Assembly: GCA_049515895.1 (NCBI GenBank) | Contig: JBEKTQ010000016.1 | Location: 1 to 64,000, forward strand | DNA length: 64,000 nucleotides | Reading direction: 5' to 3' | Source: Candidatus Bathyarchaeia archaeon | Lineage (GTDB): Archaea; Thermoproteota; Bathyarchaeia; Bathyarchaeales; Bathycorpusculaceae | In this document: piece after piece, positions 4,214 through 49,712 of the stretch | How positions within the stretch are numbered: the first letter of the stretch is position 1 | Layout: every line of letters starts with the position of its first letter | Program-made: the position numbers and the translations under genes | The notes under the pieces: generated by a model | Database searches by the model: none | Seen by the model: the letters and a program-made list of their open reading frames with translations, nothing else | What the model was told of the DNA's origin: nothing

Positions 4214-5338
4214 ATGGCAATCCTTGAATTTCAGAGAATTGATGAAATTAACGACTTTGAAAGAGAGTGGAATCAACTCCTTGCCCAAAGTTTAGACAAC
4301 AACCCATTCTTAACATACGAGTGGCTCACCACATGGTGGAAGCATTTTGGAGAAGGAAGAGAGTTGAAACTTTTCACTGCAGAGAGTCAGGGAGCGGTTT
4401 CGCTTGTTATCCCTGTAATGTATACACGATCTAAAGTTTTCGGTTCGAGACGTTGCAAGGTGGAATTTGTTGCTTCTGGAGACTCTGATTACCAAGGTTT
4501 CTTGGTGACCAATTTCCAAAAGGCTGCGAGAACGGTTAACGAATTACTCGAAAGCATAATTGAAGACTCGAACGATGCGGATCGCGTTATATTTGGAGAG
4601 GTTCCAGAAGATTCCTTTACTGCTAGACTGCTTGAAGGTGTCAGTGGAGAGGGTTTTGGAGCTTCTCATTCCACTGCTAGCTCATGCCCATATGTCTCGC
4701 TTCCTTCTAATTACGACGGATACCGTCAGACTTTGGGTTCAAATATGCGGAGAAAACTGAAAGTATGGGAAAAGCAAGCATCAAAAGATTACAGAGTCGA
4801 ATTCATCAGGTACGACAAAATCGGAACCGTTAAAGAAGCGATGAAAATCTTTTTCGAGTTGCATCAGAAGCGTCAAATGGCCAAAGGTAATTGCGGTGTA
4901 TTTCATGATAGCGACAAGAGGAGCTTTCACATGGATATTGCAAATGCTTTTGCAGAAAAGGGGTGGCTTGGTCTTTTCTTTTTAACATTCAATGACAGAC
5001 CTGTCTCAGCTATTTACTCTTTTGAGTACAATGCGAAACTATACGCGTACCTCTGCGGATTCGACCCGGAATATGCCAGATATCGACCTGGACACTTGGC
5101 CTTCGCGAACCTTATAAAGTATGGAGTTGGAAAAAAGTTGAAAGAGCTTGATTTTTTACGTGGAGATGAGGAGTACAAATCGCGGTGGAGAGCAATGGTT
5201 CGGAATAATTTTGAATTTAGGATTTCGAAAAGAGGACTGAAGAGCAAAGTTTACAACTGGACTACAGATAATGGGTCTTTTTCCTATCTCCACAAGATAC
5301 CTGTGCTCTCACAGAGGTTTTTCGCAAAGGTTCACTAA
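4214..5338 (+). CDS. GNAT acetyltransferase, CelD/BcsL (Acetyltransf_6) type
   Basis: NPFLTYEWLTTWWKHF, CPYVSLP, GFDPEYARYRPG, DFLRGDEEYKSRW. Confidence 0.9.
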   Translation: MAILEFQRIDEINDFEREWNQLLAQSLDNNPFLTYEWLTTWWKHFGEGRELKLFTAESQGAVSLVIPVMYTRSKVFGSRRCKVEFVASGDSDYQGFLVTNFQKAARTVNELLESIIEDSNDADRVIFGEVPEDSFTARLLEGVSGEGFGASHSTASSCPYVSLPSNYDGYRQTLGSNMRRKLKVWEKQASKDYRVEFIRYDKIGTVKEAMKIFFELHQKRQMAKGNCGVFHDSDKRSFHMDIANAFAEKGWLGLFFLTFNDRPVSAIYSFEYNAKLYAYLCGFDPEYARYRPGHLAFANLIKYGVGKKLKELDFLRGDEEYKSRWRAMVRNNFEFRISKRGLKSKVYNWTTDNGSFSYLHKIPVLSQRFFAKVH

Positions 5339-11708: not shown

Positions 11709-12815
11709 TTAACAAATTAAAGACTGAATATCATTTATGAAGGAAACCTGCTTTTGCCAAAAATTATTCTTCAATTTTCTGAAATCCAATTTTATTTCTT
11801 TACTATTATTAAGCGTGCGGTAAACAGTTTCGGTTAGTCTCTCTGAGTCAACATTTCTCACGTTTATTAACTTGTCACTTTGTCCAATTAATTTCATGAA
11901 ACTGGAATTTTTCAAATCGTAAGCTATGTTTATTACTGGAATACAGTTTCCAAAAGCAAATATTGCGGAATGTAGCTGCATACCGATAACTAAATCCAGA
12001 TTGCTATAAATCCAGTTTAGTTCGTGTGCAGAGTAGTTGGCAACTTGAATTGGAAGTTTTTTACTTAGTTCATTGATAACAATTGTTTCGTTTGGCGTAT
12101 GTTGGAGGTAAACTATTTGCGCGTCAAGATTATCGATTAGAAATTTGCACGTTTTTTGACATTCATTGATAACTCTATCCAGATATTCTGCTTGTAATTC
12201 CCAATCGTGACAAGCGATGTTTAAACCAATTTTCACTTTGCCCTTTTCGAAACATACCCCAGAAGGTTTTTTTTTCTCCAAGAACATAGCAGGATCTCCG
12301 ATCACTTGAACATTTGTAATGTTCAATCTTCTTAAGAATTCATACGTTTCCAGATCTCTAACGGAAGAAAGTTTTGCACGCTTGTTCAAAGCAATAATGC
12401 TTTTCAAGTGAGCCCTCGGGAGCATTTTTAGTCCAAAATTTCCGACATGCCCTAAGCCATACAAGATTATTGGAGTATCAATAGAATTAAGAAGTTTATG
12501 ATTCATTGGAAAAAACCACCAATTGTACAACCCTCCGCCGCCAATGACGCAAAGATCATATTGATTAATTATTCTTGCCAGTTTAGAATCCCCAATAACT
12601 TTTGATGTGAAGCCTGAAAGACCAAACTCAATTAGGGATTTGAACATGCCGGGTCGGATTTGCGACCTAAGGTCGGACACATCCATAGATGTGTACCTTG
12701 AAATTTCTAGATAACGACTCAAGAGTTCCTTTACTGAATAAGTTACTGCGGCGTCGCCGACATTGTATTTCGTAGTTGGGTGGAAATGAATTACGTTAGT
12801 AATTTTAGGTAGCAC
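11709..12815 (-). CDS. Polysaccharide pyruvyltransferase family protein
   Basis: NVGD, IGGGGL, SVRD, GDPA, IGMQLHSAI. Confidence 0.9.
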   Translation of the reverse strand: MLPKITNVIHFHPTTKYNVGDAAVTYSVKELLSRYLEISRYTSMDVSDLRSQIRPGMFKSLIEFGLSGFTSKVIGDSKLARIINQYDLCVIGGGGLYNWWFFPMNHKLLNSIDTPIILYGLGHVGNFGLKMLPRAHLKSIIALNKRAKLSSVRDLETYEFLRRLNITNVQVIGDPAMFLEKKKPSGVCFEKGKVKIGLNIACHDWELQAEYLDRVINECQKTCKFLIDNLDAQIVYLQHTPNETIVINELSKKLPIQVANYSAHELNWIYSNLDLVIGMQLHSAIFAFGNCIPVINIAYDLKNSSFMKLIGQSDKLINVRNVDSERLTETVYRTLNNSKEIKLDFRKLKNNFWQKQVSFINDIQSLIC

Positions 12816-15807: not shown

Positions 15808-16764
15808 TTAGCATTTTATCTCGAAAAATCGCATAAAGTGGTCATAAAGAAATTCGGGCTTGTATCCAAACCCTTCCGCCCACACAATACTCATCTTATA
15901 ACATCGCTCCGCTTCCTTTGAAGATGGGCACAGAGTTTTATTTGTTGTTTTAAGTTCAGGTGTGACTTTCAAGAGATGAGTCTTGCGTAGGACTTTCAAG
16001 TGTCTCAGAAGTAAGTCGAACCTGTGAAATATAGATGCGGACTCAGAAGGACTTCTTGAAGGAAGCTGAACGAGAGCCATAGGGTTGAGTTTGAAGTTGT
16101 CATTTTGGGGATAGTAGATCATATCCCAATCGAGCTGGTTTACCATTGTGCTCGGATGAATTGTTAGAACAGAATTCTCACGCTTCATGATAAGTCGTTG
16201 AAGGTAACCGTGCTGACGAATTCCTCCTTGCCAGTTGGAAACCAAGATTGAAAAGGGGTAAAACGTGATTCCGTGATAGCTGATCGGTTCGATGGAGATG
16301 TTTGTTGAGAAATCATGAGTTATTCCAAGAGTTTTCAACGCGTCGAGATGAGGGGGGGTCCAGCAGTACCCGGGTGCCCGATATGCAAATATTTGTTTTT
16401 TGGGAAAAAGAGCTCGAAGTGCATAAATTCCACCGGAACCTTCGATTGCTCCTGTTAAAGGGTTGATATGGGATGTCTCCCTAATGAGTGAAGTTTGAAA
16501 TGCTTCCTCGTAGCTTTCAACGTCAGTGAACTCAAAAAGGGTAGGGTGAACAGAGTGGCTTGAGGAGTGATAGCCAATTTGGTGTTCCCTTAGTAAGTCT
16601 ACGGTCGCTGGAAAACTTGATAGTTTTTCAGCCATGTTTCCAGTTATGAAGAATAAGCCCGACAGCTCATGCTTTTTCAAGAGCTCCAAGATATTATGCA
16701 ACCCTGGAACCGAGTTTCTGCTTATGAAGTCTTCCGTATCGAAGGTCAAGAAAAAACTGTGCAA
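15808..16764 (-). CDS. Polysaccharide deacetylase (NodB-like)
   Basis: LTFDTED, FFITG, IGYHSSSHSVH, YRAPGY. Confidence 0.85.
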   Translation of the reverse strand: MHSFFLTFDTEDFISRNSVPGLHNILELLKKHELSGLFFITGNMAEKLSSFPATVDLLREHQIGYHSSSHSVHPTLFEFTDVESYEEAFQTSLIRETSHINPLTGAIEGSGGIYALRALFPKKQIFAYRAPGYCWTPPHLDALKTLGITHDFSTNISIEPISYHGITFYPFSILVSNWQGGIRQHGYLQRLIMKRENSVLTIHPSTMVNQLDWDMIYYPQNDNFKLNPMALVQLPSRSPSESASIFHRFDLLLRHLKVLRKTHLLKVTPELKTTNKTLCPSSKEAERCYKMSIVWAEGFGYKPEFLYDHFMRFFEIKC

Positions 16765-17026: not shown

Positions 17027-18319
17027 CTATGCAAGTATTTGCGACAACCCCGGGAACAAATACCGCATAATCCGTCTAGGCTGCCGCCGTTGGACAAGCG
17101 ACACGAGTAAATTTGGCAAAACCCCTTTCCATAGCAAAAGCCTGATTCGTAACAAATTCAAGGATGCCCATTTTTTCATAAAAGACAAATTCGTCATCAA
17201 ATCAATTGTCTTAATACTGCCCGAATTGAACAAATCGCGTATAGCCCGATTGAATATATAAATCCCGGGATAAAGTTTTCTATTTTCACTATTGAACGAT
17301 GTCTTTGCAATATACGCAGTTTCTTTGTATTGAACAACTAAACTGTAAGCTATGACATGACCATTGAGTTCTAAAAACCAAACGCCCCGTTTGAAATCTG
17401 GGCAGTTTCTAATAGCTGAATTGGACCCCTCCCAAAGCGACATTAAACCATCATCTGAAGCGTGATGGTGAAGTCGCCAATTCTGCTTCCAGCTTGTTTT
17501 CTCAATGTCAATTATTTTTTGAAAGGCATCCTGCTCGTGATCCCTGTTTTCAAATATAAGAACTTGATATTTGCCAGCAGCGCAAAGCTTACGTTCAATA
17601 TTCTTAAATTCCGCTCTGAAATCTTTGCCCCGCGATTTTTTAAAGTCATCCCAAGCACACGCAACATCGACTACGCGATGATTCAGACGAGCGTCGTTTT
17701 TCTTGCGAATAGATATGTGGTTAGTTTTGCATGTTCGCTCTATGATCTGCAGATTTTGGGACTCAGCAGGCACTTCCAAGATAGCAAACCAGCATTTAAG
17801 ATGACTGAATATGTGATTAAATGAGTTTTTCATGCAAACTTCGCTGTACTTCGTGTCAAAGATGAAGTCTGGCGAATACGGGTAATCGAAAAGCCACTCA
17901 ACAAATCGGATCCCAAATTTTTTCCTAATCAACAGTGGTGCTATCCCTACGATTTTTCCATCAGTCATGAATATCAAAACGGTTGGAGAAGAGCCTTTAA
18001 GCAAAGCTCGTTCCATTCTTTTTTTGATAAATACACTTAACATAAACGGATTATTACTATTCTTGATTATGAAGGAGTCCAACTCTTTGTCGATTTCGGA
18101 TATTTTTCTTGGATCCGAAATAGCATGAATTGATAATCTCAATTCAATCACTCTCACACCTTTTAAAATTACAACTTCTGACGATAATTGGTCACTATGT
18201 GCGAGCTCCCTCGTTTCTAATCTGATTTCGATGTGTCGCACAATCAGGTCCGGCTTATTTGCCTTGTAAAATCCTACAATGGCATTTCTGTTTTTTCGTC
18301 TATGCCCACGCTCACCCAA
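17027..18319 (-). CDS. GNAT acetyltransferase, CelD/BcsL type (start probably downstream of the track call)
   Basis: NNPFM, VGIAPL, IEKTSWK, KTSF...LYPG, MKKWA. Confidence 0.8.
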   Translation of the reverse strand: MGERGHRRKNRNAIVGFYKANKPDLIVRHIEIRLETRELAHSDQLSSEVVILKGVRVIELRLSIHAISDPRKISEIDKELDSFIIKNSNNPFMLSVFIKKRMERALLKGSSPTVLIFMTDGKIVGIAPLLIRKKFGIRFVEWLFDYPYSPDFIFDTKYSEVCMKNSFNHIFSHLKCWFAILEVPAESQNLQIIERTCKTNHISIRKKNDARLNHRVVDVACAWDDFKKSRGKDFRAEFKNIERKLCAAGKYQVLIFENRDHEQDAFQKIIDIEKTSWKQNWRLHHHASDDGLMSLWEGSNSAIRNCPDFKRGVWFLELNGHVIAYSLVVQYKETAYIAKTSFNSENRKLYPGIYIFNRAIRDLFNSGSIKTIDLMTNLSFMKKWASLNLLRIRLLLWKGVLPNLLVSLVQRRQPRRIMRYLFPGLSQILA

Positions 18320-18503: not shown

Positions 18504-19538
18504 TCATGATCTTTGAAACCTTCTGAGCACTAATCTTGCAAAAGAAATGGCTTTGCTGTTAACTGGAAGAACAAATTTATATTCTGGAACAAATTCTCCA
18601 CCAAATTTCTGTTTGATTCTATGAATTCGATCCGTTGGATCTGGAGAAGTGCGCCCAAAGTTGACGTATTTGAACCCGTTCTGTGAAGCCCAGTTAATAA
18701 TCTTCCAGTATACGTAAGGCATAAAAGATCTACCACTTGTATTTGGCGAGTACCCCACATAGCTGTGGCGCGCCTCAGAATTCTTCGTGTCACATAACAT
18801 TCCAAACCCAGCGATTACATTATTCTCGGAAGTAAGTAATAGAACCCTAAACTGTTCATCCAAATTTGATCGCAGATTTTTGAAGAACCCATAAGAATTC
18901 GCGTCATAGCCTTGACGGCACATTGATTCTTGGTATAGATTGAAGAAATCAGCGTAATCGCTTTCACGACTAGCGGAATCTAACGAAAAACCGCACCTTT
19001 CAAAGTACCTTATCTCTTTACGCTCGTCTTTCGGCAAAACTTTGTTCCATAAATATTCAGGCGGTTTCTCAGAAAGGTCAAGAATGAAGTCTCCCGCCTC
19101 AACTCGATAATTAAACCCTGAATGAACCAAACAATTCACAATAGATTGCTGATGAACTCTAAGCACCATCGAAACCACAGGATTGAGGATTGAGAACTTA
19201 ACCGACTTTGGTAATGATTCTAAAATCTGGGACATGTTGGTTATCTGACGGCTTATGATCGGACCGGCAATGTGAGGGCCGCTCTCAATGCAAGGAAGCG
19301 AATCTAAAACCAGCAAGGTCCTTGGAACGATTTTTACACGCATCTTATCATAAAAGAAGGGACACACGGCATCCAAGTTTCCTTTGCCATCTCGGCAGGC
19401 CAAATAGAGCGGTCTTGCACCAGTGCTCTCAAGAACATTTCTCCAAGACCAAAAGTGAAAGAAGCCTCCACCGTTTAGGCTTACAAAATCATCCCATTCT
19501 TTTCTGTCTTGTGTCTCAGACCAGCAAACCTTGTTCAT
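18504..19538 (-). CDS. FemAB-like GNAT acyl/aminoacyl transferase
   Basis: WDDFV...FFHFWSW, YVNFGRT, KQKFGG. Confidence 0.85.
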   Translation of the reverse strand: MNKVCWSETQDRKEWDDFVSLNGGGFFHFWSWRNVLESTGARPLYLACRDGKGNLDAVCPFFYDKMRVKIVPRTLLVLDSLPCIESGPHIAGPIISRQITNMSQILESLPKSVKFSILNPVVSMVLRVHQQSIVNCLVHSGFNYRVEAGDFILDLSEKPPEYLWNKVLPKDERKEIRYFERCGFSLDSASRESDYADFFNLYQESMCRQGYDANSYGFFKNLRSNLDEQFRVLLLTSENNVIAGFGMLCDTKNSEARHSYVGYSPNTSGRSFMPYVYWKIINWASQNGFKYVNFGRTSPDPTDRIHRIKQKFGGEFVPEYKFVLPVNSKAISFARLVLRRFQRS

Positions 19539-23176: not shown

Positions 23177-23806
23177 TCAGGATTCTACGTATTTTACAAT
23201 TTCAAAGGCTTCGGCTGCTTCAACGCCGACTTGGCTCCCTCTGAAAGAAGCCAGATTAACAGTTGATTCGTATGCCAAATATCTTTTCTCCTTTTGAGAA
23301 ATGTGACACCGCAACGCTTCCCACTTCTTATCAACGCAGCCCGTTATGTTTACAAAATAGGTTGGCAAGAAAGCGGCCGGTCTTACCCTAGGGGTTTCAA
23401 AAGCGAGAACCTTTGGAATGTTCCTAAACGATGCCATGGCAAGCCAGCCTACCCTCCGATGATCTTGATGAGTATCATTAACCGAATGAGTTAACACAAT
23501 ATCAGGTTGATACTTGAGGGCATACTGTTCTAAGCAATTTACTGTTTCAAATGAATCTGGAATCTCGGTGTCTGGAAAATTCTCAAAATGGATTTCCTTC
23601 ACTCCCAAAACGTGCATGGCTTCTGTGCTTTCCCTCATCCTCACGTTGGTGTCAGTCGTTTTTCCGCCCCTTGTCATATACAAAGCGATCACTTGTGTTC
23701 CTGCTTGCACAGCTTTGTACAGCGTCCCGCCTGATCCTAATTCAATATCGTCAGGATGCGCTCCAACAGCCAACAAAACCTTGGAAGCAAATACCATTTC
23801 GATCAC
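23177..23806 (-). CDS. PIG-L/LmbE family de-N-acetylase
   Basis: VGAHPDDIELG, DTHQDH, CHISQ, AEAF. Confidence 0.92.
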   Translation of the reverse strand: MIEMVFASKVLLAVGAHPDDIELGSGGTLYKAVQAGTQVIALYMTRGGKTTDTNVRMRESTEAMHVLGVKEIHFENFPDTEIPDSFETVNCLEQYALKYQPDIVLTHSVNDTHQDHRRVGWLAMASFRNIPKVLAFETPRVRPAAFLPTYFVNITGCVDKKWEALRCHISQKEKRYLAYESTVNLASFRGSQVGVEAAEAFEIVKYVES

Positions 23807-40793: not shown

Positions 40794-41984
40794 TTACGAG
40801 CAAAATTCCCTATACACGTGGAGATATTTCTCCGCGGTCCGTTCAACGTTGTATCTGTTTCTGCCAAACGACCTGATGTCATTGCTGAAACTATCTAGGT
40901 CACGGCTGTTCCGCGTTCTCACCAGTTCATCAGCCAAACTCTCCATGTCATCACTAACTATGCCATACTTTCCACTATCAGAGAGCTCAACTGCAAAAGG
41001 CATCCTAAGCAGCAGTGGAATCTTACCCAAACATATCCCGTCAAGAAGTGCCATAGGACAAGCATCGTAAAAGCTGAGCAAAGCAATAAACTTGCAACGC
41101 TTCATGCTTTCCACCAATTGTGCCCTAGGTGTAAATCCTTTAAGCTCAATATTTCGCAATCCTAAAAACTTAATTTCTGAACGCATTTTATTAAATAAAG
41201 GCCCAGTACCATGTACAACTATCCGAAACGGCGTTCCCCTTTCCTGCAGCAGAAATGCGAGCCTAATAATGTTCAAAGCACCCTTTCTCCAAAATAAACG
41301 ACCTGCAAAAAGGATGGTGTTTTCATCTTCTGGCACATCATCAGATTGGCTGTATTCCTTATCAAGTCTGTCAAGATTAATTCCATTATAAATAAATCGA
41401 GTTCTATCAGAATACTTTTGGCCCATCTCTGATAGCAAGTCAGATTTCAAACTACCTGAAACAGCCACCGAAAGATCAGAGAGACGAAATTCCTTTCCAT
41501 AAGTAAAAGATTCAAGAGGATATCCGATTACATAAGTCCTCAAATCCATGAAACTTCCACCTCGAAGAATGGCACGCGAACTCCAAATCTTTTCCATAAG
41601 CGGACTATCATGAAAAGTGACTATGAAAGGCGCAAAATCCTTCAAACTTACAATCGCGGGAAAAGCAGAACCGCTTTGCCCATGGATTATATCGGGTGCT
41701 TTTTCTCTCATTAGCCGCTGAATTTTCTTCTGATTAGCCAATTGAAAAACAACATGATGAGGCGGGACATTTGGATAAGGAAGCCTTATTACACTTACTC
41801 CTTCATCAACTGTCGGCTCAAATTCCTTTCCGAAACTATTACTTGGGTAACCACAAACAACTGTTACTTCAACACCTAACTTTGTAAGACTCGTCGCCAA
41901 GTTCTTAACGAAGCCACCTATCCCTCCGAAGATATGTGGAGGATACTCATGAGTCAAGAAAACAACTTTCAAATGTTTCACCAC
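40794..41984 (-). CDS. GT4 glycosyltransferase
   Basis: EYPPHIFGGIG, IYNGIN, LFAGRLFWRKG, YDACPMALLDG. Confidence 0.9.
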   Translation of the reverse strand: MVKHLKVVFLTHEYPPHIFGGIGGFVKNLATSLTKLGVEVTVVCGYPSNSFGKEFEPTVDEGVSVIRLPYPNVPPHHVVFQLANQKKIQRLMREKAPDIIHGQSGSAFPAIVSLKDFAPFIVTFHDSPLMEKIWSSRAILRGGSFMDLRTYVIGYPLESFTYGKEFRLSDLSVAVSGSLKSDLLSEMGQKYSDRTRFIYNGINLDRLDKEYSQSDDVPEDENTILFAGRLFWRKGALNIIRLAFLLQERGTPFRIVVHGTGPLFNKMRSEIKFLGLRNIELKGFTPRAQLVESMKRCKFIALLSFYDACPMALLDGICLGKIPLLLRMPFAVELSDSGKYGIVSDDMESLADELVRTRNSRDLDSFSNDIRSFGRNRYNVERTAEKYLHVYREFCS

Positions 41985-42160: not shown

Positions 42161-43345
42161 CTATTTTGCACGGCGAGTTGATGGTATGGTGGTGATAAAT
42201 AGACTCTGGCGACGCCTGGCTATTCTGAAGAGGGCAGCTACAAGAGAGTATTGGGATTGGATGAAAGAAATGATTAAGGAGCGGGTTTTCCCAACTATGA
42301 AGAGCAAAAGCATTATGATCCAGAATGGCAAAACCACCAAAGGCGTTAGCACAGTTGTAATAACTAATGAAACGACACCAAGTAGAAACACGCTTGGTAG
42401 TACGCAATCCATGATAAAATGGGTGGGCATAATCAGCATGCCAAACTTACCGGTCTTCCTCTTCAACAGCATATTCTTAAACAGCAACATGGCCCCAATA
42501 AGCAGCGCGGCTCTACGGATTTGCTGCGTTGTTCTATCAGAAAAGGAGCTAGGCGCATACTCGTAATATTTTGCTTGCTCATCATAAACTGTCCTGAAAC
42601 CCATTAACTTCGCTTGGTAAGGCACGCAAGAGTCAAAAGACGCATTTGGCGAAAGCTGAAGTTTCTCAAACAAGCTCCTGCATATTTCCCGTCTAACAGC
42701 CAAAATCTCTCCTTTTGAGTCAGGAGTCGAATCAATTTCAGATTCTGCTTTTCGCATAAAGTCATAAAAGAACCGATAAGACTTCTCCAACGTCGGACCT
42801 AACTCTTTTTCGCCGCCCATCACTATTTCTTTTCCAGTCACAGCCCCAATCGCCGGGTCCACAAAGTGCTTGGTCAAGTGTTGCATGGCATCCGGATAAT
42901 AAAAGGACGCCGCATCCGTTGCAACAATTATATCGCCTTTCGAATTGACGATTCCGTCAATCATTGCTTGAGTGTAGCCGCTCCTTTTTTCCGGTCTGAT
43001 TAACCGAATCGATTTCTTTGACTTTTTAGAACGATCAATTATTAGTTTACAGGTTCCGTCAGATGAACACCCGTCTACAAAAACAACCTCAAACCTATCG
43101 CTAGGATAAACCATTTCTTCGATGTTCTCGATTTTCCTGCCGATGATTTGTTCCTCATTATAGACCGGAACAATAAGAGAAACAGAAGGATACGAGAACT
43201 CAACCAGTTTCCCGTTCGACCTGCTCTTCTTATTGTAGTAAAATAAGTAGGCAAGATAGCTTGTATAAAATATGATTATGGTTCCAAACGAGAACAATGT
43301 TAGAATCAGAAAAACTTCATTCAAAAGCACTGCTTCAACCTCCAA
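42161..43345 (-). CDS. Membrane-bound GT2 glycosyltransferase (IcaA/PgaC-like)
   Basis: VSLIVPVYNEE, DGCSSDGT, ATDA, QQIRRA; N- and C-terminal TMs. Confidence 0.9.
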   Translation of the reverse strand: MEVEAVLLNEVFLILTLFSFGTIIIFYTSYLAYLFYYNKKSRSNGKLVEFSYPSVSLIVPVYNEEQIIGRKIENIEEMVYPSDRFEVVFVDGCSSDGTCKLIIDRSKKSKKSIRLIRPEKRSGYTQAMIDGIVNSKGDIIVATDAASFYYPDAMQHLTKHFVDPAIGAVTGKEIVMGGEKELGPTLEKSYRFFYDFMRKAESEIDSTPDSKGEILAVRREICRSLFEKLQLSPNASFDSCVPYQAKLMGFRTVYDEQAKYYEYAPSSFSDRTTQQIRRAALLIGAMLLFKNMLLKRKTGKFGMLIMPTHFIMDCVLPSVFLLGVVSLVITTVLTPLVVLPFWIIMLLLFIVGKTRSLIISFIQSQYSLVAALFRIARRRQSLFITTIPSTRRAK

Positions 43346-43649
43346 AAACTCTTAATAAATTGATTCCAGCACTGTATTCAGGAAAGTCTAAACCTGGTTT
43401 TTAGCCTTGAGCTCGATTTCTTTCAGCCGCTTTTGATACTGAGCAGTTATCTTTACGGTTTTGAAACCGCCCCGCCTATTGGACAGCTTAATAGAACAAA
43501 AACAGTGAGATTCAGTCTCCACGTTTTTCCAACATGTCAATGCTGTGCCAAAAAAGGAAACAAAGCCCAACCAAGACCAGTTCAGCTGAAAAAACGCCAG
43601 CCTAATACAAGCGAGCTTTAAAATACCTTGTTGCATAATTCCCCGAACC

Positions 43650-44906
43650 TTAGGGGGTAAACCTATACGGATTTAAAGCATTATTGTCTGTCTTAGACAA
43701 CACCTTTCGTGAAGACCTGGCACACATCAGAAAGAACGGAGAAAGGTCATCCCACGCAAACCAAGCACTTTCCTCAACACCGCGAAATGACCCGAGCCAT
43801 TGCTTAAATGCTAGGCTTTTTTCGTAACGATACCGAATACTTGAAATAAGATCTCTATCTTCAACAAACCATTTTCTACCCTCAACAACCTCACTTGAGG
43901 GAACCGTCTGACCGGTAAGATCCAAATATTCAGCGCGAGCGACATCCAACCCGTTATCTCCTACAAAAAGCCGAAAGGTCGATCCTATTCGAGGATTAAT
44001 ATCAAGCACCTTATACTTTCCATCTCGCGCGTCGTATCTGTAACCGATGTCAAGTATTCCTTTGTAACCGATGCTCTTCATAAAATCTCTCGTTAATTCA
44101 TCAACTGCTGGATTCCTCGAGCAAACACCCAGGGAAGTTACCCCCGTATGAATTGGAGACTGACGAATTTTCTTGCCGGTCACTCCAAAGAGACAAGCCG
44201 ATTTCTCGTCAAAATAGCCATTAAACATCCAAATCGAATCGTCACCCCCCGGAATATACTCTTGAAGCATAAAATTCGGGTTGAGGGGATCCTCACATTG
44301 ACCATACAATCTTAGAAGTTCTTTTTTCGTTCTCGCTATAAACATTCTTTTTCCAGTCCGAGGTGACCCCCCGCGAAAAATCTCCTTCAAAACCACTGGG
44401 AATACTGCATCCTTTACATATTCTTCAACATCACCCATCGAACACGGAAAACATGCCTCCGGAGTTGGAACACCACACTTTTTGGCCAAGAAATACATCT
44501 TTTCCTTACTTGCAAGCGCTAAAACAAGCTCCCTGGAAAGGTTTGGAAAAATAAACCCTTCACTCAACGCGTCCGCGTTATCTGCGAGCCAACCAGCACC
44601 ACTATCGGTCGTGTGAATTAGAAGCGAACGCCTCCCAATTTTCTTGGCAACGTCCAATAAGTATTGAACAGAAGTCTGAGGTGACGCAGCGTCTACATCA
44701 AATAAAAATTTCTTCTGACAATATCGGGAGAATAGCCCCGGAGACCACGGATTAGGATCGACACCATGGGCGGCAATGCCAAGTCTTCCAAAGCTACGCA
44801 AAACTCCCAGTTGACCATAATGGTAAGTATATAGAACCACAACGGGAACTGATGTATCTCTCACAGAAACCTGTTGAACCGTCATCTTATCACATTTAAC
44901 CGTCAC
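43650..44906 (-). CDS. ATP-grasp carboxylate-amine ligase (D-aspartate ligase-like)
   Basis: LGVLRSFGRLGI, FPVVLK, MLQEYIPGGD, KKIRQSP..TG, DARDGKYKVLDINPR. Confidence 0.88.
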   Translation of the reverse strand: MTVKCDKMTVQQVSVRDTSVPVVVLYTYHYGQLGVLRSFGRLGIAAHGVDPNPWSPGLFSRYCQKKFLFDVDAASPQTSVQYLLDVAKKIGRRSLLIHTTDSGAGWLADNADALSEGFIFPNLSRELVLALASKEKMYFLAKKCGVPTPEACFPCSMGDVEEYVKDAVFPVVLKEIFRGGSPRTGKRMFIARTKKELLRLYGQCEDPLNPNFMLQEYIPGGDDSIWMFNGYFDEKSACLFGVTGKKIRQSPIHTGVTSLGVCSRNPAVDELTRDFMKSIGYKGILDIGYRYDARDGKYKVLDINPRIGSTFRLFVGDNGLDVARAEYLDLTGQTVPSSEVVEGRKWFVEDRDLISSIRYRYEKSLAFKQWLGSFRGVEESAWFAWDDLSPFFLMCARSSRKVLSKTDNNALNPYRFTP

Positions 44907-45604
44907 TTTCTCTTCATAACTAAATCTGGTATCTTAACAATCTCATCGTTCTCAACAGTGAGAGGTGAGTAAAAGTCATTTACGTGTTTGATAATATAAT
45001 CAAGATCTCTTGTTTGACCAGTTTTTCGTAGATATTCCGCACTTTTCCCTTCGGCGCAAACAGTTACCGGTTTATCCTTCCAGCGGTTTACAATTTCAGC
45101 GGTTTTCTTATTTTTCGGGGTGTATCCAGCTTTCATAAAGCCAGCTGCAATCCAAGCACAACATAGCTGATCCTCCTCACGGAACTCCCCACGTGTGGGT
45201 GCACCGAGAACTTCCACCCGACTATAAAGCCCAACTAGATGATTGACAGTGGCACCATAATTCCGAATACACGCCACGTAGACCGAATTGCAATTCCTCA
45301 ACGAGTAAAGGAGCGGTATCCCCGATGAAGATACCAGAATTGCAGGCCGCGAAACATCCCTAATGCTTTCAATCTCTACCGGACTATTATTAATATCGAA
45401 CCCATAAGGCATGCTGCCTCCCATCTCACCAACCAGCAACGGACAACCAAGCCGTTTTGCCAGAAGAAGAGCCGCTTCAACCGACGGAGCAAAAAAACAT
45501 CTTCTTCCAGATTCAACAGCAGCAGCTGCCACTGTTATCGAACGAATCACATCGACAACAACAACCGCGCATCTTTCACCATAATGATGAGAACTCTCGG
45601 CCAA
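44903..45604 (-). CDS. comB: 2-phosphosulfolactate phosphatase family protein
   Basis: VVVDVIRS, LVGEMGG....GFDINNSP, REEDQLCC; GTGA overlap with the ATP-grasp gene. Confidence 0.85.
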   Translation of the reverse strand: MAESSHHYGERCAVVVVDVIRSITVAAAAVESGRRCFFAPSVEAALLLAKRLGCPLLVGEMGGSMPYGFDINNSPVEIESIRDVSRPAILVSSSGIPLLYSLRNCNSVYVACIRNYGATVNHLVGLYSRVEVLGAPTRGEFREEDQLCCAWIAAGFMKAGYTPKNKKTAEIVNRWKDKPVTVCAEGKSAEYLRKTGQTRDLDYIIKHVNDFYSPLTVENDEIVKIPDLVMKRK

Positions 45605-45630
45605 ACAATCAATAGAAACTGTTTTTCTGC

Positions 45631-46491
45631 TTACAATCCCGCCCTCCTACTTACATTTGACTCAACGGGTAGATGCGGACGAAGATTCTCTTTGCTGAAA
45701 GCATCTGAATGCAACCCTCGACGATAAATTTCCACCCGCAACAACTCTTCAAGCCGCACGTTGCAAAGATGAACTTCACGCCCGAAGTGATCCAACAAAG
45801 CGAACTGACTTGGCTTGTTAGGCGCTTCAAACGTAACAAAACCGTGTCCAAACGCGTTCGCAAAACGATCAGCAAACCCCACGTTAAGATCACCCGCATC
45901 ATTAAATAATCCGACACCCTTCGCGCTCTCCCTTGCCTCCACAACCAACTGAACAGCGCCAGCCTGAAGCCACCTTTTTCCTTGGTTAATCAATGATTCA
46001 ACCACGTCTTGCGTAAAAGCCCCCTCGTGTTTCTTACCGAGCTCAAACTGCACTTCCAAACCACGGTCGTTTGCCATCTTCACAATATCTTGCGCATCTA
46101 ACGAAATATCTGTAAACCCTTCCGCGCATTCAATCCGCGTGAACCCAAAATCAGCCACAAGATCCAGGTACTGCGATAGTTTTCCCTGAACATAGGCAAC
46201 TTCAAAAGGACCTCCTCCCGTAGTCGTCGGCACCTGGTACTTCTTTGCTAATTCGATCTTCTGACGGGTAACGTTCTCATTGGCAATCATCCAGCAAGCC
46301 ATCGAAACCTTAAGAATCGACATAAGATGGTGACTTTGCTCAAGGTGGCCCGCCAGCGTTAAGGCATCGTAACCTGGATCAAACGGGCTTGTCGCTGGAC
46401 GGATTTCAGGCACACCAATAGACTTCAAATAGTCGTCAGTATGGAGTCGACCCGCTCGAGAAAATTTCATAGATGGAACAGAATCAACCAA
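45631..46491 (-). CDS. comA: Phosphosulfolactate synthase
   Basis: TGGGPFE, IECAEGF, FELGKK, VVEARES, FEAP, EIYRRGL match the ComA TIM-barrel motif series. Confidence 0.88.
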   Translation of the reverse strand: MVDSVPSMKFSRAGRLHTDDYLKSIGVPEIRPATSPFDPGYDALTLAGHLEQSHHLMSILKVSMACWMIANENVTRQKIELAKKYQVPTTTGGGPFEVAYVQGKLSQYLDLVADFGFTRIECAEGFTDISLDAQDIVKMANDRGLEVQFELGKKHEGAFTQDVVESLINQGKRWLQAGAVQLVVEARESAKGVGLFNDAGDLNVGFADRFANAFGHGFVTFEAPNKPSQFALLDHFGREVHLCNVRLEELLRVEIYRRGLHSDAFSKENLRPHLPVESNVSRRAGL

Positions 46492-46660
46492 TTTTTTTCA
46501 CGACTTAATGGTAATAGATTTGAAATTTTGTTAGTCACTTGTTTCCTTCAAGTCTTATCGATTACGATGTTATCCACCCTTAAATCAGTACAAAGAATAT
46601 TTTAAAGCCAAGATTGTTATCGATAATCTGAACCAACAGATAGATCAGGATGCTTGTTAG

Positions 46661-47533
46661 TTGACTCCACCTAAGACCAAAAACAATCGCAAACAGAAGC
46701 TAGTCGACGAACTCTTCGGCAACCAAGCAACATATTGGAGAGACACTTACAAAGCTAAAGACATCCAAGCGATCATCTATCAACGGCGACAAGCTGTTGC
46801 GCTGAGCTATATCGATGGATTATCGTTGGCAAAAACCGCCCATGTTCTTGAAATCGGTTGCGGAGCAGGATTCATGACGACAGCTCTCGCAAAACGAGGA
46901 TTTGACGTGGAAGCCATTGACCGTACTCAAGCAATGATCGATCTGACACTGGAAAACGCGAGACAAGCAGGGGTCGAGAATAGGGTAAATGTATGCACTG
47001 GAGACATCCACGAGCTATTTTACGAAGATGAATTCTTCGACTTGATTGTTGCTTTGGGGGTATTCCCTTGGCTTCATGATTCTCAAAAGGCGTTGACTGA
47101 AGTCTCGAGGACTTTAGCAACTAGCGGATATATTGTCCTAAGTGTTGACAATGCGTTTCGAGTGACAACAATAGTAGATCCCTTGACCTTCCCGCCATTT
47201 GCACGCATCCGAATTCAAGTAAAGCGTAAGCTTGAGAGAATAGGTTTACTTAGTTCATCGAATCCGGGGACCAACGCCACACCTTATAGACAACACTCGA
47301 TAAGGGAATTCAACAAAAGTCTCTACGAGGCAGGTCTAACGGTAATTAAGAGCACAAGTGTAGGATTCGGACCATTCACTTTTTTCGGTCATAAATTGTT
47401 CTCTGATGAAGTTGGAATCAAGATTCACCAAAAGCTACAAGAGTACGCTGACAAAGGATACCCAATCTTGCGCTCAACCGGATCACAATACATCGTCATA
47501 GCAACCAAGAAGCCGCCGAAACCAATTCCCTAA
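46661..47533 (+). CDS. Methyltransferase type 11, divergent from comA
   Basis: VLEIGCGAG, FDLIVALGVFPW, GFGPF. Confidence 0.9.
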   Translation: MTPPKTKNNRKQKLVDELFGNQATYWRDTYKAKDIQAIIYQRRQAVALSYIDGLSLAKTAHVLEIGCGAGFMTTALAKRGFDVEAIDRTQAMIDLTLENARQAGVENRVNVCTGDIHELFYEDEFFDLIVALGVFPWLHDSQKALTEVSRTLATSGYIVLSVDNAFRVTTIVDPLTFPPFARIRIQVKRKLERIGLLSSSNPGTNATPYRQHSIREFNKSLYEAGLTVIKSTSVGFGPFTFFGHKLFSDEVGIKIHQKLQEYADKGYPILRSTGSQYIVIATKKPPKPIP

Positions 47534-47578: not shown

Positions 47579-48178
47579 TTATTGTGTCATGTTCAAGAAT
47601 AAACTAACATATCTGTTATCATACTGCGGAATATCTAATTCAGAATTGAATAACCAAAGCTCGACCAAAAGATAATAATAGTATCCAGAGTTCTTCGAAT
47701 CCCACGCAGAAGTTAGATTAACAGGAAATTCTAATCCATTAATAGTTACTCCAGCGATCGAAGATATTCCACCAGAAAAACTTAGTCCGTTAACTTCAAA
47801 TGTTAAAGGCGTCTCCCACGTTTCCCCGTCAACAAGAAGGGAGTTATATTCATAAAGAGCAGGTAATGAGCTTGGTGTTCCAAGCGTTGCATTAGGCAGA
47901 GATCCAGTTTCATTCCCGATTTTTACATAGCTCCTGTAGTAACAAGAGGATCCCATTTGATTGACCACACCCAAATAAACTGAATAATTCACATCAGCTA
48001 CAATGTTAAAAGGAAGGTTACCAAAAGTGTGATTTGGACCGAGGACGTAAAGCTCAGAGAATTTTAGACCTGAGGGCGTTTTTACCAAAAGACTTATGGT
48101 TGGCGAGGCAAACAGCAAAACTCCAATTAAGCCGATCGTGACAAGGACAGTTCGAACGTTTTTAAGCCTTATTTTCAT
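47579..48178 (-). CDS. DUF1616-like membrane-anchored protein
   Basis: N-terminal TM, FSELYVLGP, VYLGVVN, VELWLFN. Confidence 0.75.
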   Translation of the reverse strand: MKIRLKNVRTVLVTIGLIGVLLFASPTISLLVKTPSGLKFSELYVLGPNHTFGNLPFNIVADVNYSVYLGVVNQMGSSCYYRSYVKIGNETGSLPNATLGTPSSLPALYEYNSLLVDGETWETPLTFEVNGLSFSGGISSIAGVTINGLEFPVNLTSAWDSKNSGYYYYLLVELWLFNSELDIPQYDNRYVSLFLNMTQ

Positions 48179-48629
48179 CCACCTCAGGCTTCAAACCAGG
48201 GATTTTCTCCATGTACCGACGTTGAAAGCGGCGCCAAACCAGAAACAAAGCAAAAACCAATTCGGAAGCACCAATTAAACTAAATGCAATCGTCAACCAG
48301 ACGGTACGTTGACCAGAAACTAAAGCATCTTGCTGGGCACCTTGAGCGGAATTCGTCACGGATTGCGCAATTGGGAGTACGCTGTCTGCTTGGACCACGG
48401 CTGTATTGGAATCGCCAGCTTGATAAGAGTTTTCAGCTTGCGCCAAATCACCTGCAGCAACATTTAACTGAACCAGTAAACTAGTAACATTTGCGCCAGC
48501 TTTTTCGGCTTCCAAAACCGCTTTGAAAGCTTGCTCGACAGCGCTGTTGGCAGCTTGCAGTTTCGACCCCGTTTGGTCAGTTTGAGCAAAAGCAAAGTGC
48601 CCGCCATAAAGGTAAGAGCTAAACGCCAA
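48162..48629 (-). CDS. Helical protein with C-terminal TM anchor; the reading frame extends upstream through a signal-like segment
   Basis: AFKAVLEAEKAGANVTSL; C-terminal TM followed by WRRFQRRY. Confidence 0.75.
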   Translation of the reverse strand: MAFSSYLYGGHFAFAQTDQTGSKLQAANSAVEQAFKAVLEAEKAGANVTSLLVQLNVAAGDLAQAENSYQAGDSNTAVVQADSVLPIAQSVTNSAQGAQQDALVSGQRTVWLTIAFSLIGASELVFALFLVWRRFQRRYMEKIPGLKPEVDENKA

Positions 48630-49010: not shown

Positions 49011-49712
49011 TCAATAAATTGTTTCTAACATTATGCGCTTCAAAATTTCGGCGCCATTCTTGACTCCCAGTTTTTTCTGGCCAAGCCTTTCTCGATATTG
49101 AATGGGAATCTCCACAATGCCAAAACCTTCCCGCTCCACCTGATGGTTTAGTTCCACTTCGACATCAAAGCCTTTGGATTTCACAGCCCAGTTTCTAAGA
49201 ATTCCCGCACGCACAACACGCAACCCCGTCAACGGATCAACCAATTGGACTCCATTTAGTAAGTTATGAGTAAAAGCAATTATGCGATTTCCAAAGTAAA
49301 GTATATTATGCTTTTCACCGAGGTTAAGAGTATCATTAAACCTGTTTCCGCAAACCATGCCCACACGTAGGTTCTTCTCTAAAATCCGAATCATCAAAGG
49401 AACGTGTTCAGCAGGATATGTGTAATCTGCATCTGTGAGAACAACGTAATCAACGGATGAATCCAAGAGCTTTATCGCCTTCGCTAACGCATTACCCTTT
49501 CCGAATCCATCTTGAAAAACAACGTCAGCACCCAAATTCTTGGCCACCTCGACAGTTCGATCGGTACTTCGGCCGTCAACTACCAAAACATGTGGGCATC
49601 CAAGATTATCCATAAGCTCAGCTATTGTGAGCCCTATGCCTTCTTCCTCGTTCAACGCAGCTATTACAACTTGTGTCGAGGATATAGCTTGGATATCTCC
49701 TTTCGCCAACAA
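49011..49712 (-). CDS. GT2, dolichol-phosphate glycosyltransferase-like
   Basis: VIAALNEE, VDGRSTDRT, GKGNA, TDADYTY, DPLTGLR, IPIQYRERLG. Confidence 0.92.
   Translation of the reverse strand: MLAKGDIQAISSTQVVIAALNEEEGIGLTIAELMDNLGCPHVLVVDGRSTDRTVEVAKNLGADVVFQDGFGKGNALAKAIKLLDSSVDYVVLTDADYTYPAEHVPLMIRILEKNLRVGMVCGNRFNDTLNLGEKHNILYFGNRIIAFTHNLLNGVQLVDPLTGLRVVRAGILRNWAVKSKGFDVEVELNHQVEREGFGIVEIPIQYRERLGQKKLGVKNGAEILKRIMLETIY

Follow-up and report, generated by a model that had tools for sequence, protein, structure and literature searches.

The window analysed here is a stretch of 64,000 nucleotides (nt) from contig C16 (JBEKTQ010000016.1, positions 1 to 64,000) of a Candidatus Bathyarchaeia archaeon from peat (assembly GCA_049515895.1). 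Its positions 43650-47533 contain four genes, which code for a ComA-family enzyme, a ComB-family enzyme, an ATP-grasp ligase and a methyltransferase. The source genome amounts to 3.18 Mb in 53 contigs and is rated 100% complete and 4.9% contaminated. No 16S rRNA gene was found in the assembly; the nearest relatives of the ligase stem from Bathyarchaeota/Bathyarchaeia bins, and in the phylogenetic tree it is nested in their clade with a support of 99. All four genes are intact open reading frames (ORFs):

43650-44906, minus strand: ATP-grasp ligase, 418 amino acids (aa); labelled 'D-aspartate ligase' or 'carboxylate--amine ligase' in the sources
44903-45604, minus strand: ComB-family 2-phosphosulfolactate phosphatase, 233 aa
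45631-46491, minus strand: ComA-family (2R)-phospho-3-sulfolactate synthase of the cassette-type clade, 286 aa
46661-47533, plus strand: class I S-adenosylmethionine-dependent methyltransferase, 290 aa, divergent from ComA

ComA and ComB are separated by 26 nt, the genes of ComB and the ligase overlap by 4 nt, and a spacer of 169 nt lies between the divergent ComA and methyltransferase genes. A first-pass annotation of this DNA had described comA, comB and the ATP-grasp gene as closely packed and the methyltransferase gene as divergent, and the ORFs lie exactly where it had placed them. The true start of ComA may be a few codons downstream of the called one, because its homologues comprise about 278 aa.

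Family membership and the missing coenzyme M pathway

ComA matches Pfam family PF02679 with 155.4 bits (cut-off 25.2, E 2.2e-45) and ComB matches PF04029 with 101.1 bits (cut-off 26.4, E 6.6e-29). ComA can be aligned over nearly its full length to the enzyme from M. jannaschii (PDB 1qwg/24fo, E 1e-31), and the charged motifs are kept; the match to YitD from B. subtilis (PDB 1u83) is weaker (E 7.7e-13). Within cassettes, ComA proteins are 58-89% identical across both domains. The genome encodes two ComA-family proteins, whereas the gene at 44903-45604 is its sole ComB-family member. The methyltransferase belongs to Methyltransf_11 (E 1.1e-19) and also matches Methyltransf_25/31.

Assignment of the ligase relied on structure prediction. 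Its score for Pfam family CPSase_L_D2 is 19.4 bits, just under the cut-off of 19.8; there was no match to a curated NCBIfam model and none to the TupA-like Pfam domain at E <= 0.001. The AlphaFold model (predicted local distance difference test 80.8, predicted template modelling score 0.83) was matched by Foldseek with a probability of 1.0 and 10-18% identity to biotin carboxylases, PurK, PurT, L-amino-acid ligases (RizA, 3vot) and PylC. The modelled structure is that of a three-domain ATP-grasp enzyme. A sequence search found no close solved relative. More than 3822 proteins among 7999 scored candidates are homologous to the ligase at E <= 0.001, and the matches in the ESM Atlas were generic 'carboxylate--amine ligase' clusters only.

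A genome-wide search detected no McrA (PF02249), no Ldh_2/ComC (PF02615) and no ComD (TIGR03845). For the ComE model TIGR03846 the best match reached 35.5 bits, as compared to a cut-off of 221.5, and such matches were weak ones to thiamine enzymes. Because McrA, ComC and ComDE are absent from a genome rated 100% complete, synthesis of coenzyme M (CoM) was ruled out as the purpose of the cassette, the bacterial Xcb route not having been searched. This result is in favour of the first-pass annotation, which had seen no comC or comDE in the window and proposed a product other than CoM.

The second ComA-family gene (contig C15:20428-21270, corresponding to L004:8429-9271; strand not given) scores 207 bits against Pfam and is 23% identical to the cassette ComA. 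It adjoins a gene for a fusion of rubredoxin with an FMN-dependent 2-hydroxyacid dehydrogenase, and genes for citrate synthase, succinate dehydrogenase, PrpD and succinyl-CoA ligase surround the two. Given this low identity, the tricarboxylic acid cycle neighbours and the lack of ComB or ligase nearby, it was set aside. In the search for a methanogen that has a canonical ComA next to a cassette ComA, the genome of locus L022 showed the cassette ComA only; this 1.1-Mb bin is too small to judge the presence of a canonical ComA.

Conservation of the cassette and its glycan context

A scan with one genome per species yielded 308 relatives of the ligase. All locus counts refer to the closest 80 of these 308, in which gene presence was scored by tblastn with the proteins of the window. 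The 80 loci comprise 13 from Bathyarchaeia, one from Methanomicrobiales and 44 from Acidobacteriota; the rest include Ignavibacteriota, Bacteroidota, Chlorobiota, Chloroflexota, Gemmatimonadota, Pseudomonadota and Binatota, and ten host phyla are named. ComA is present in 73 loci, ComB in 74 and both in 72, and in 71 of the 80 both are located within 3 kb of the ligase. In all 72 loci having ComA and ComB, the three genes are co-oriented, and the order ComA-ComB-ligase is maintained in most loci. This linkage is far beyond chance. A homologue of the methyltransferase occurs in 44 loci, in 41 of which no more than 1.5 kb separate it from ComA or the ligase. Its divergent orientation, correctly noted in the first-pass annotation, holds for the window, whereas it is co-directional in most bacteria; the methyltransferase is a fourth member of the cassette and more than a neighbour.

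Seven loci lack ComA. Two of them are cut by a contig end, and L015, L016, L062, L064 and L083 are truly without ComA and ComB; L025 lacks ComB. For two of five genomes in which ComA and ComB are not linked to the ligase, both genes were found elsewhere, in one case in a glycan locus without ligase and in the other at L091. There (L091:6818-10840, a bin of Acidobacteriota), the gene behind ComA and ComB codes for another ATP-grasp protein, which is only 23% identical to the ligase of the window; judged by this divergence, L091 is an independent pairing of putative sulfolactate genes with an ATP-grasp enzyme. The association was also seen when sampling started from ComA. A PF02679 gene occurs in 16 of 301 sampled genomes from the phylum of genome G304, and the sole cassette-type ComA among them (68% identical) adjoins ComB and an ATP-grasp gene; for the other 15 (at most 33% identity), neither was found within 1.5 kb. 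The cassette occurs sporadically: two of 301 sampled genomes from the class of the window have it, and none of the 14 other genomes from the genus of the window does. In L058, L060, L077, L062, L018, L020, L021, L026 and L028, at least two ligase paralogues, 52-56% identical to each other, stand in tandem, and some of these loci also contain an AMP-binding enzyme. Those bacteria may therefore carry out more than one ligation.

In order to characterize the surroundings, ORFs were called in the 80 loci and clustered, cluster representatives were annotated with Pfam, and profiles were built from the clusters. A core glycan gene is present in the flanks (at most 8 kb per side) of 54 of the 80 loci, and a PIG-L or carbohydrate esterase family 4 (CE4) deacetylase in those of 26. 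With the same profiles, 17-kb windows of the archaeon's own genome gave 22% and 0.6%, respectively, as a background that is derived from this one genome. The association with glycan genes, which the first-pass annotation had seen at a single locus, therefore recurs in homologous cassettes. About 20 loci of Acidobacteriota share one operon with a fixed order of 16 genes. Genes 1 to 6 code for an AAA/PEGA protein, a BcsQ-like ATPase, a NusG-like factor, a UDP-sugar dehydrogenase, an epimerase/dehydratase and a Bac_transf initiating transferase; genes 7 to 10 for the methyltransferase, ComA, ComB and the ATP-grasp ligase; and genes 11 to 16 for a family 4 glycosyltransferase (GT4), an APH-type kinase, an FkbM methyltransferase, a further GT4, Wzy_C and a beta-helix protein. 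Some of these operons contain a flippase or a CE4 deacetylase. Other bacterial contexts include Wza-like export genes, exosortase EpsH/EpsI, family 2 glycosyltransferases (GT2), GH9, PilZ, GGDEF and sigma-54 regulators.

In the window, the cassette is part of a glycan locus of about 40 kb: between approximately 9.7 and 49.7 kb, glycan genes form the majority of the genes with a family match. They code for a Polysacc_synt flippase, a kinase, GT2 and GT4 transferases and at least nine methyltransferases. The features relevant for the following are:

4214-5338, plus strand; 17027-18319, minus strand; 18504-19538, minus strand: three Acetyltransf_6/FemAB-like proteins, in or near the glycan locus
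11709-12815, minus strand: polysaccharide pyruvyl transferase, adjoining the flippase
15808-16764, strand not given: CE4-like protein, weak match (Polysacc_deac_1, 26.8 bits)
23177-23806, minus strand: PIG-L family de-N-acetylase (PF02585, 92.9 bits), the displaced partner of the cassette
40794-41984, minus strand: GT4 glycosyltransferase (Pfam), downstream of the cassette
42161-43345, minus strand: GT2 glycosyltransferase (Pfam), downstream of the cassette
43346-43649, minus strand: spacer of 304 nt between ligase and GT2, with oligo-T runs; PIG-L stands here in relatives
43388-43636, minus strand: ORF of 82 aa without match, inside the spacer
47579-48629 and 49011-49712, minus strand: DUF1616-like protein, 155-aa protein of no assigned family and GT2, upstream of the cassette

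The arrangement of the Bathyarchaeia loci identifies the de-N-acetylase at 23177 as a cassette partner. In these loci the order is GT2, an unassigned protein, DUF1616, the methyltransferase (reversed), ComA, ComB, the ligase and PIG-L, followed by a GFO/IDH/MocA oxidoreductase, a further unassigned protein, GT4, GT2 and GT4. PIG-L is located immediately downstream of the ligase in 11 of the 13 loci and within four genes of it in all 13. The window has no PIG-L directly behind the ligase, and no remnant of it was detected in the 304-nt spacer by tblastn (E 1e-3); the 82-aa ORF, which occupies the PIG-L place of the sister genomes, is probably a scar of rearrangement. The PIG-L protein encoded at 23177-23806 shares 91% identity with the post-ligase PIG-L of L011 over 208 aa, and it is the sole PIG-L/CE4 match of the genome to the cluster-derived profiles. 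In the first-pass annotation, two de-N-acetylases of the locus had been proposed to free amino sugars. The one at 23177 is confirmed as an orthologue of the cassette PIG-L; the one at 15808 is a weak match that found no comparative support. The synteny of PIG-L is the strongest new support, drawn from gene order and sequence identity, for a freed sugar amine as the putative acceptor.

The remaining neighbours are in line with those of related loci. The DUF1616-like gene, the 155-aa ORF and GT2 upstream of the cassette retain their order in sister Bathyarchaeia loci (clusters 15, 18 and 12). Downstream, the GT2 at 42161-43345 has a 59%-identical homologue behind the cassette of L010, and GT4 genes from the cluster of the window's GT4 follow the cassette in loci from Bathyarchaeia and Acidobacteriota. 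The cassette does lie directly upstream of GT2 and GT4, as had been annotated; co-transcription with them is not claimed, because the 304-nt spacer with its oligo-T runs intervenes, and these runs may act as a terminator. The pyruvyl transferase beside the flippase points to a second anionic decoration on the same glycan. In bacteria, members of the FemAB-like family add amino acids onto cell-wall precursors, and with three such proteins encoded here the archaeal glycan may have side chains of aminoacyl or peptide type.

Loci with other acid-supply genes and the proposed function

In several loci the ligase is combined with genes other than ComA and ComB. Two Bathyarchaeia bins (L015:8001-13900 and L016:7100-12000) have the same ligase and PIG-L and no ComA or ComB, in whose place an octopine-dehydrogenase-like gene, a methyltransferase gene and a gene of the Asp/Glu-racemase family are found. 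In L062, a gene of the ornithine-cyclodeaminase family and a methyltransferase gene precede two ATP-grasp genes; this operon is of the Terriglobales exopolysaccharide type that carries ComA and ComB in L058, L060 and L077. L064 contains PIG-L, a pyridoxal phosphate-dependent decarboxylase and an ornithine-cyclodeaminase-family gene. This swap pattern is in keeping with a predicted scheme of acid supply, ligase and deacetylase. Moreover, a homologue of the LarA-like 2-hydroxyacid racemase is inserted inside the cassette in seven of the 80 loci, which we count in favour of a putative free hydroxy-acid intermediate.

We consider the four genes a mobile glycan-tailoring cassette. All substrates, the linkage by an amide, the identity of the sugar that accepts the acid and the task of the methyltransferase are inferred. 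ComA would add sulfite to phosphoenolpyruvate (PEP) to give 2-phospho-3-sulfolactate; this predicted use of sulfite and PEP is based on the conservation of motifs with respect to 1qwg. ComB would remove the phosphate and release free 3-sulfolactate. The translationally coupled ATP-grasp enzyme would convert the carboxylate to an acyl phosphate and join sulfolactate covalently to a surface glycan, the bond most likely being an amide on the amino group of a hexosamine that the PIG-L de-N-acetylase has uncovered. The methyltransferase would place a methyl group on the acyl group or on the sugar. The product would be an archaeal surface glycan bearing a carbon-bonded sulfonate, which is permanently anionic. 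That ComA and ComB make sulfolactate from PEP and sulfite and that the ATP-grasp enzyme attaches it to a surface glycan, with a hexosamine amide as the most likely linkage, is a reading to which we assign about an even chance of being correct. The proposal in the first-pass annotation that sulfolactate is ligated to amino sugars freed in the locus is thereby supported in part.

A more general version, which we put forward tentatively and hold to be somewhat more doubtful than not, is a horizontally mobile, modular re-acylation. PIG-L or CE4 would free a sugar amine, and a dedicated ATP-grasp enzyme would re-acylate it with an acid from a swappable supply module. Most loci would use ComA/ComB, which would deliver sulfolactate; elsewhere, octopine-dehydrogenase-like, ornithine-cyclodeaminase-like or racemase genes would serve as the module. 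The archaeon, seemingly incapable of assimilating sulfate, would draw on environmental sulfite, and peat archaea and soil bacteria alike would carry a carbon-bonded sulfonate on the cell surface.

Several observations weigh against the proposed ligation of sulfolactate. With 159.9 bits against the NCBI equivalog TIGR03849 (cut-off 280) and 61.2 bits against TIGR00298 (cut-off 175.05), respectively, ComA and ComB do not reach the equivalog cut-offs; by this measure they are members of the families and not orthologues of the methanogen enzymes. Genes of the PAPS-reductase, ATP-sulfurylase and NIR_SIR sulfite-reductase families were not found in the genome, which is rated 100% complete, and the organism seems to lack the usual routes to make or to reduce sulfite. 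The ligase hardly changes with its partners: the ligases of L015 and L016 depart from the linked ligases in four of the 79 alignment columns for which conservation among the latter is 97% or higher. A search for specificity-determining residues gave no clear signal, these four differences being conservative changes only. Likewise, between the Terriglobales operons with ComA/ComB and the version with the ornithine-cyclodeaminase gene, the ligases are 62-70% identical, which is not below the range of the neighbouring genes (57-89%). Because the ligase is nearly the same when the supply module differs, it may be tolerant of acids or, equally, may not use the product of ComB. In genome G302, the ligase and the set of methyltransferase, ComA and ComB are found in two separate glycan loci. 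Twenty-six of the 80 loci are without a core glycan gene by the profiles used, several of them on short contigs. Finally, the 80 loci are kin of each other.

These points bear differently on the alternatives. Sulfolactate could be part of the glycan while the ligase activates another carboxylate, either C6 of a uronic acid or that of an amino acid, and either couples it to the amine that has been freed or uses it to form an ester with the 2-hydroxyl group of sulfolactate. The latter would resemble VanA, the D-Ala-D-lactate ligase, which forms an ester. The near constancy of the ligases upon replacement of ComA/ComB agrees with this explanation, as do the UDP-sugar dehydrogenase (a maker of uronic acid) in the operon of Acidobacteriota and the pairing of the ligase with an Asp/Glu-racemase-family gene in L015 and L016. 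Furthermore, the glycan ATP-grasp enzyme Cj1438C activates the carboxylate of the sugar (PMC11800379). However, the translational coupling of ComB and the ligase and the order ComA-ComB-ligase, which is kept in most loci, are typical of consecutive steps, and family searches revealed no uronic-acid dehydrogenase in the locus of the window. We regard this alternative as unlikely. Quite unlikely in our opinion is a soluble conjugate resembling bacillithiol or mycothiol. In the synthesis of these compounds, PIG-L de-N-acetylates a glycoside of N-acetylglucosamine (GlcNAc) and an ATP-dependent ligase then acylates the amine. Sulfolactate is a sulfonate analogue of malate; GT4 would place GlcNAc on its hydroxyl, PIG-L would remove the acetyl group, and the ATP-grasp enzyme would add an amino acid to the amine of the resulting glucosamine. 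GT4, PIG-L and the ligase do recur with a supply of 2-hydroxyacid in Bathyarchaeia loci, and the 26 loci without core polymer-assembly genes by the cluster profiles would be accommodated. But the ligase is of a different family, and the GT4 of the window (40794-41984) is not BshA, as it scores 25.8 bits against model TIGR03999 with its cut-off of 273.7 (BshC was not searched). Wzy, flippase, Bac_transf and export genes in many loci, and several further glycosyltransferases and a flippase in that of the window, indicate assembly of a polymer.

The missing sulfite route gives some weight to an enzyme of different chemistry. The ComA-like protein, whose score is below the equivalog cut-off, could use a nucleophile different from sulfite in the addition to PEP and generate another 3-substituted lactate, and the methyltransferase, to which no role is otherwise assigned, would act on the added group. 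The genome has no recognisable path from sulfate to sulfite and no sulfite reductase. Nevertheless, the charged motifs are kept in the full-length alignment to ComA from M. jannaschii, the clade also occurs in bacteria that presumably make sulfite as a matter of course, and to our knowledge methanogens with a proven ComA are likewise without a clear source of sulfite. We see only a slim chance for this explanation. ComA and ComB alone are enough for sulfolactate, which could be an end product in the form of a solute or store, as in spores of B. subtilis, or the genes could be a remnant of CoM synthesis, with the ligase being functionally unrelated. Locus L090 has the set of methyltransferase, ComA and ComB without a ligase. 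However, L090 is itself a glycan locus, the linkage to the ligase is kept in 71 of the 80 loci and across domains, and ComC, ComDE and McrA are absent from the genome; free sulfolactate or a CoM remnant is therefore highly improbable.

Relation to known systems and significance

The proposed route shares the ComA and ComB families and presumably the chemistry, from PEP and sulfite via phosphosulfolactate to sulfolactate, with CoM synthesis in methanogens. It differs in having no ComC, ComDE or methyl-CoM reductase, in the sub-equivalog scores and in an operon with an ATP-grasp gene inside a glycan locus. In B. subtilis, YitD and YitC represent a use of ComA and ComB outside methanogenesis, namely for the sulfolactate of spores; the cassette ComA resembles YitD far less than the archaeal enzyme, and we know of no ligase or glycan context there. 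The D-aspartate ligase from E. faecium is a carboxylate-amine ATP-grasp enzyme acting on a precursor of the cell envelope. Many homologues of the window's ligase are labelled accordingly; this name is automatic, and no gene for D-Asp supply is present in the locus of the window. The C-terminal amidoligase of Cj1438 from C. jejuni is a TupA-like ATP-grasp enzyme from a surface-polysaccharide (capsule) locus that amidates glucuronate (PMC11800379). It is the closest functional analogue of the ligase step: like the ligase of the window, it is an ATP-grasp enzyme from a surface-glycan locus, and it decorates a sugar with an amide, as is proposed for the ligase. It belongs to another subfamily and has the opposite polarity: the ligase of the window has no match to the TupA Pfam domain and is proposed to activate the free acid.

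A literature search, which covered few subscription journals, turned up neither the cassette nor a sulfolactyl glycan, and the term 'sulfolactyl' did not occur. The parts belong to known families, and the tailoring of glycans by an ATP-grasp ligase is of a known kind; a sulfolactyl decoration was not found described. Sulfonated surface sugars are known mainly in the form of sulfoquinovose, and the negative charge of microbial glycans is normally due to uronic acids, pyruvate, phosphate or sulfate esters. If the proposed function is correct, the sulfolactyl group, a non-carbohydrate substituent whose C-S bond is stable, would be new, and ComA and ComB would gain a function outside methanogens. 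A product could then be named for a gene set that is found in archaea and in no fewer than eight bacterial phyla from peat, soil and groundwater. Such a decoration would bear on the binding of metals and water, on phage resistance and on the sulfur that uncultured cells lock into organic matter.

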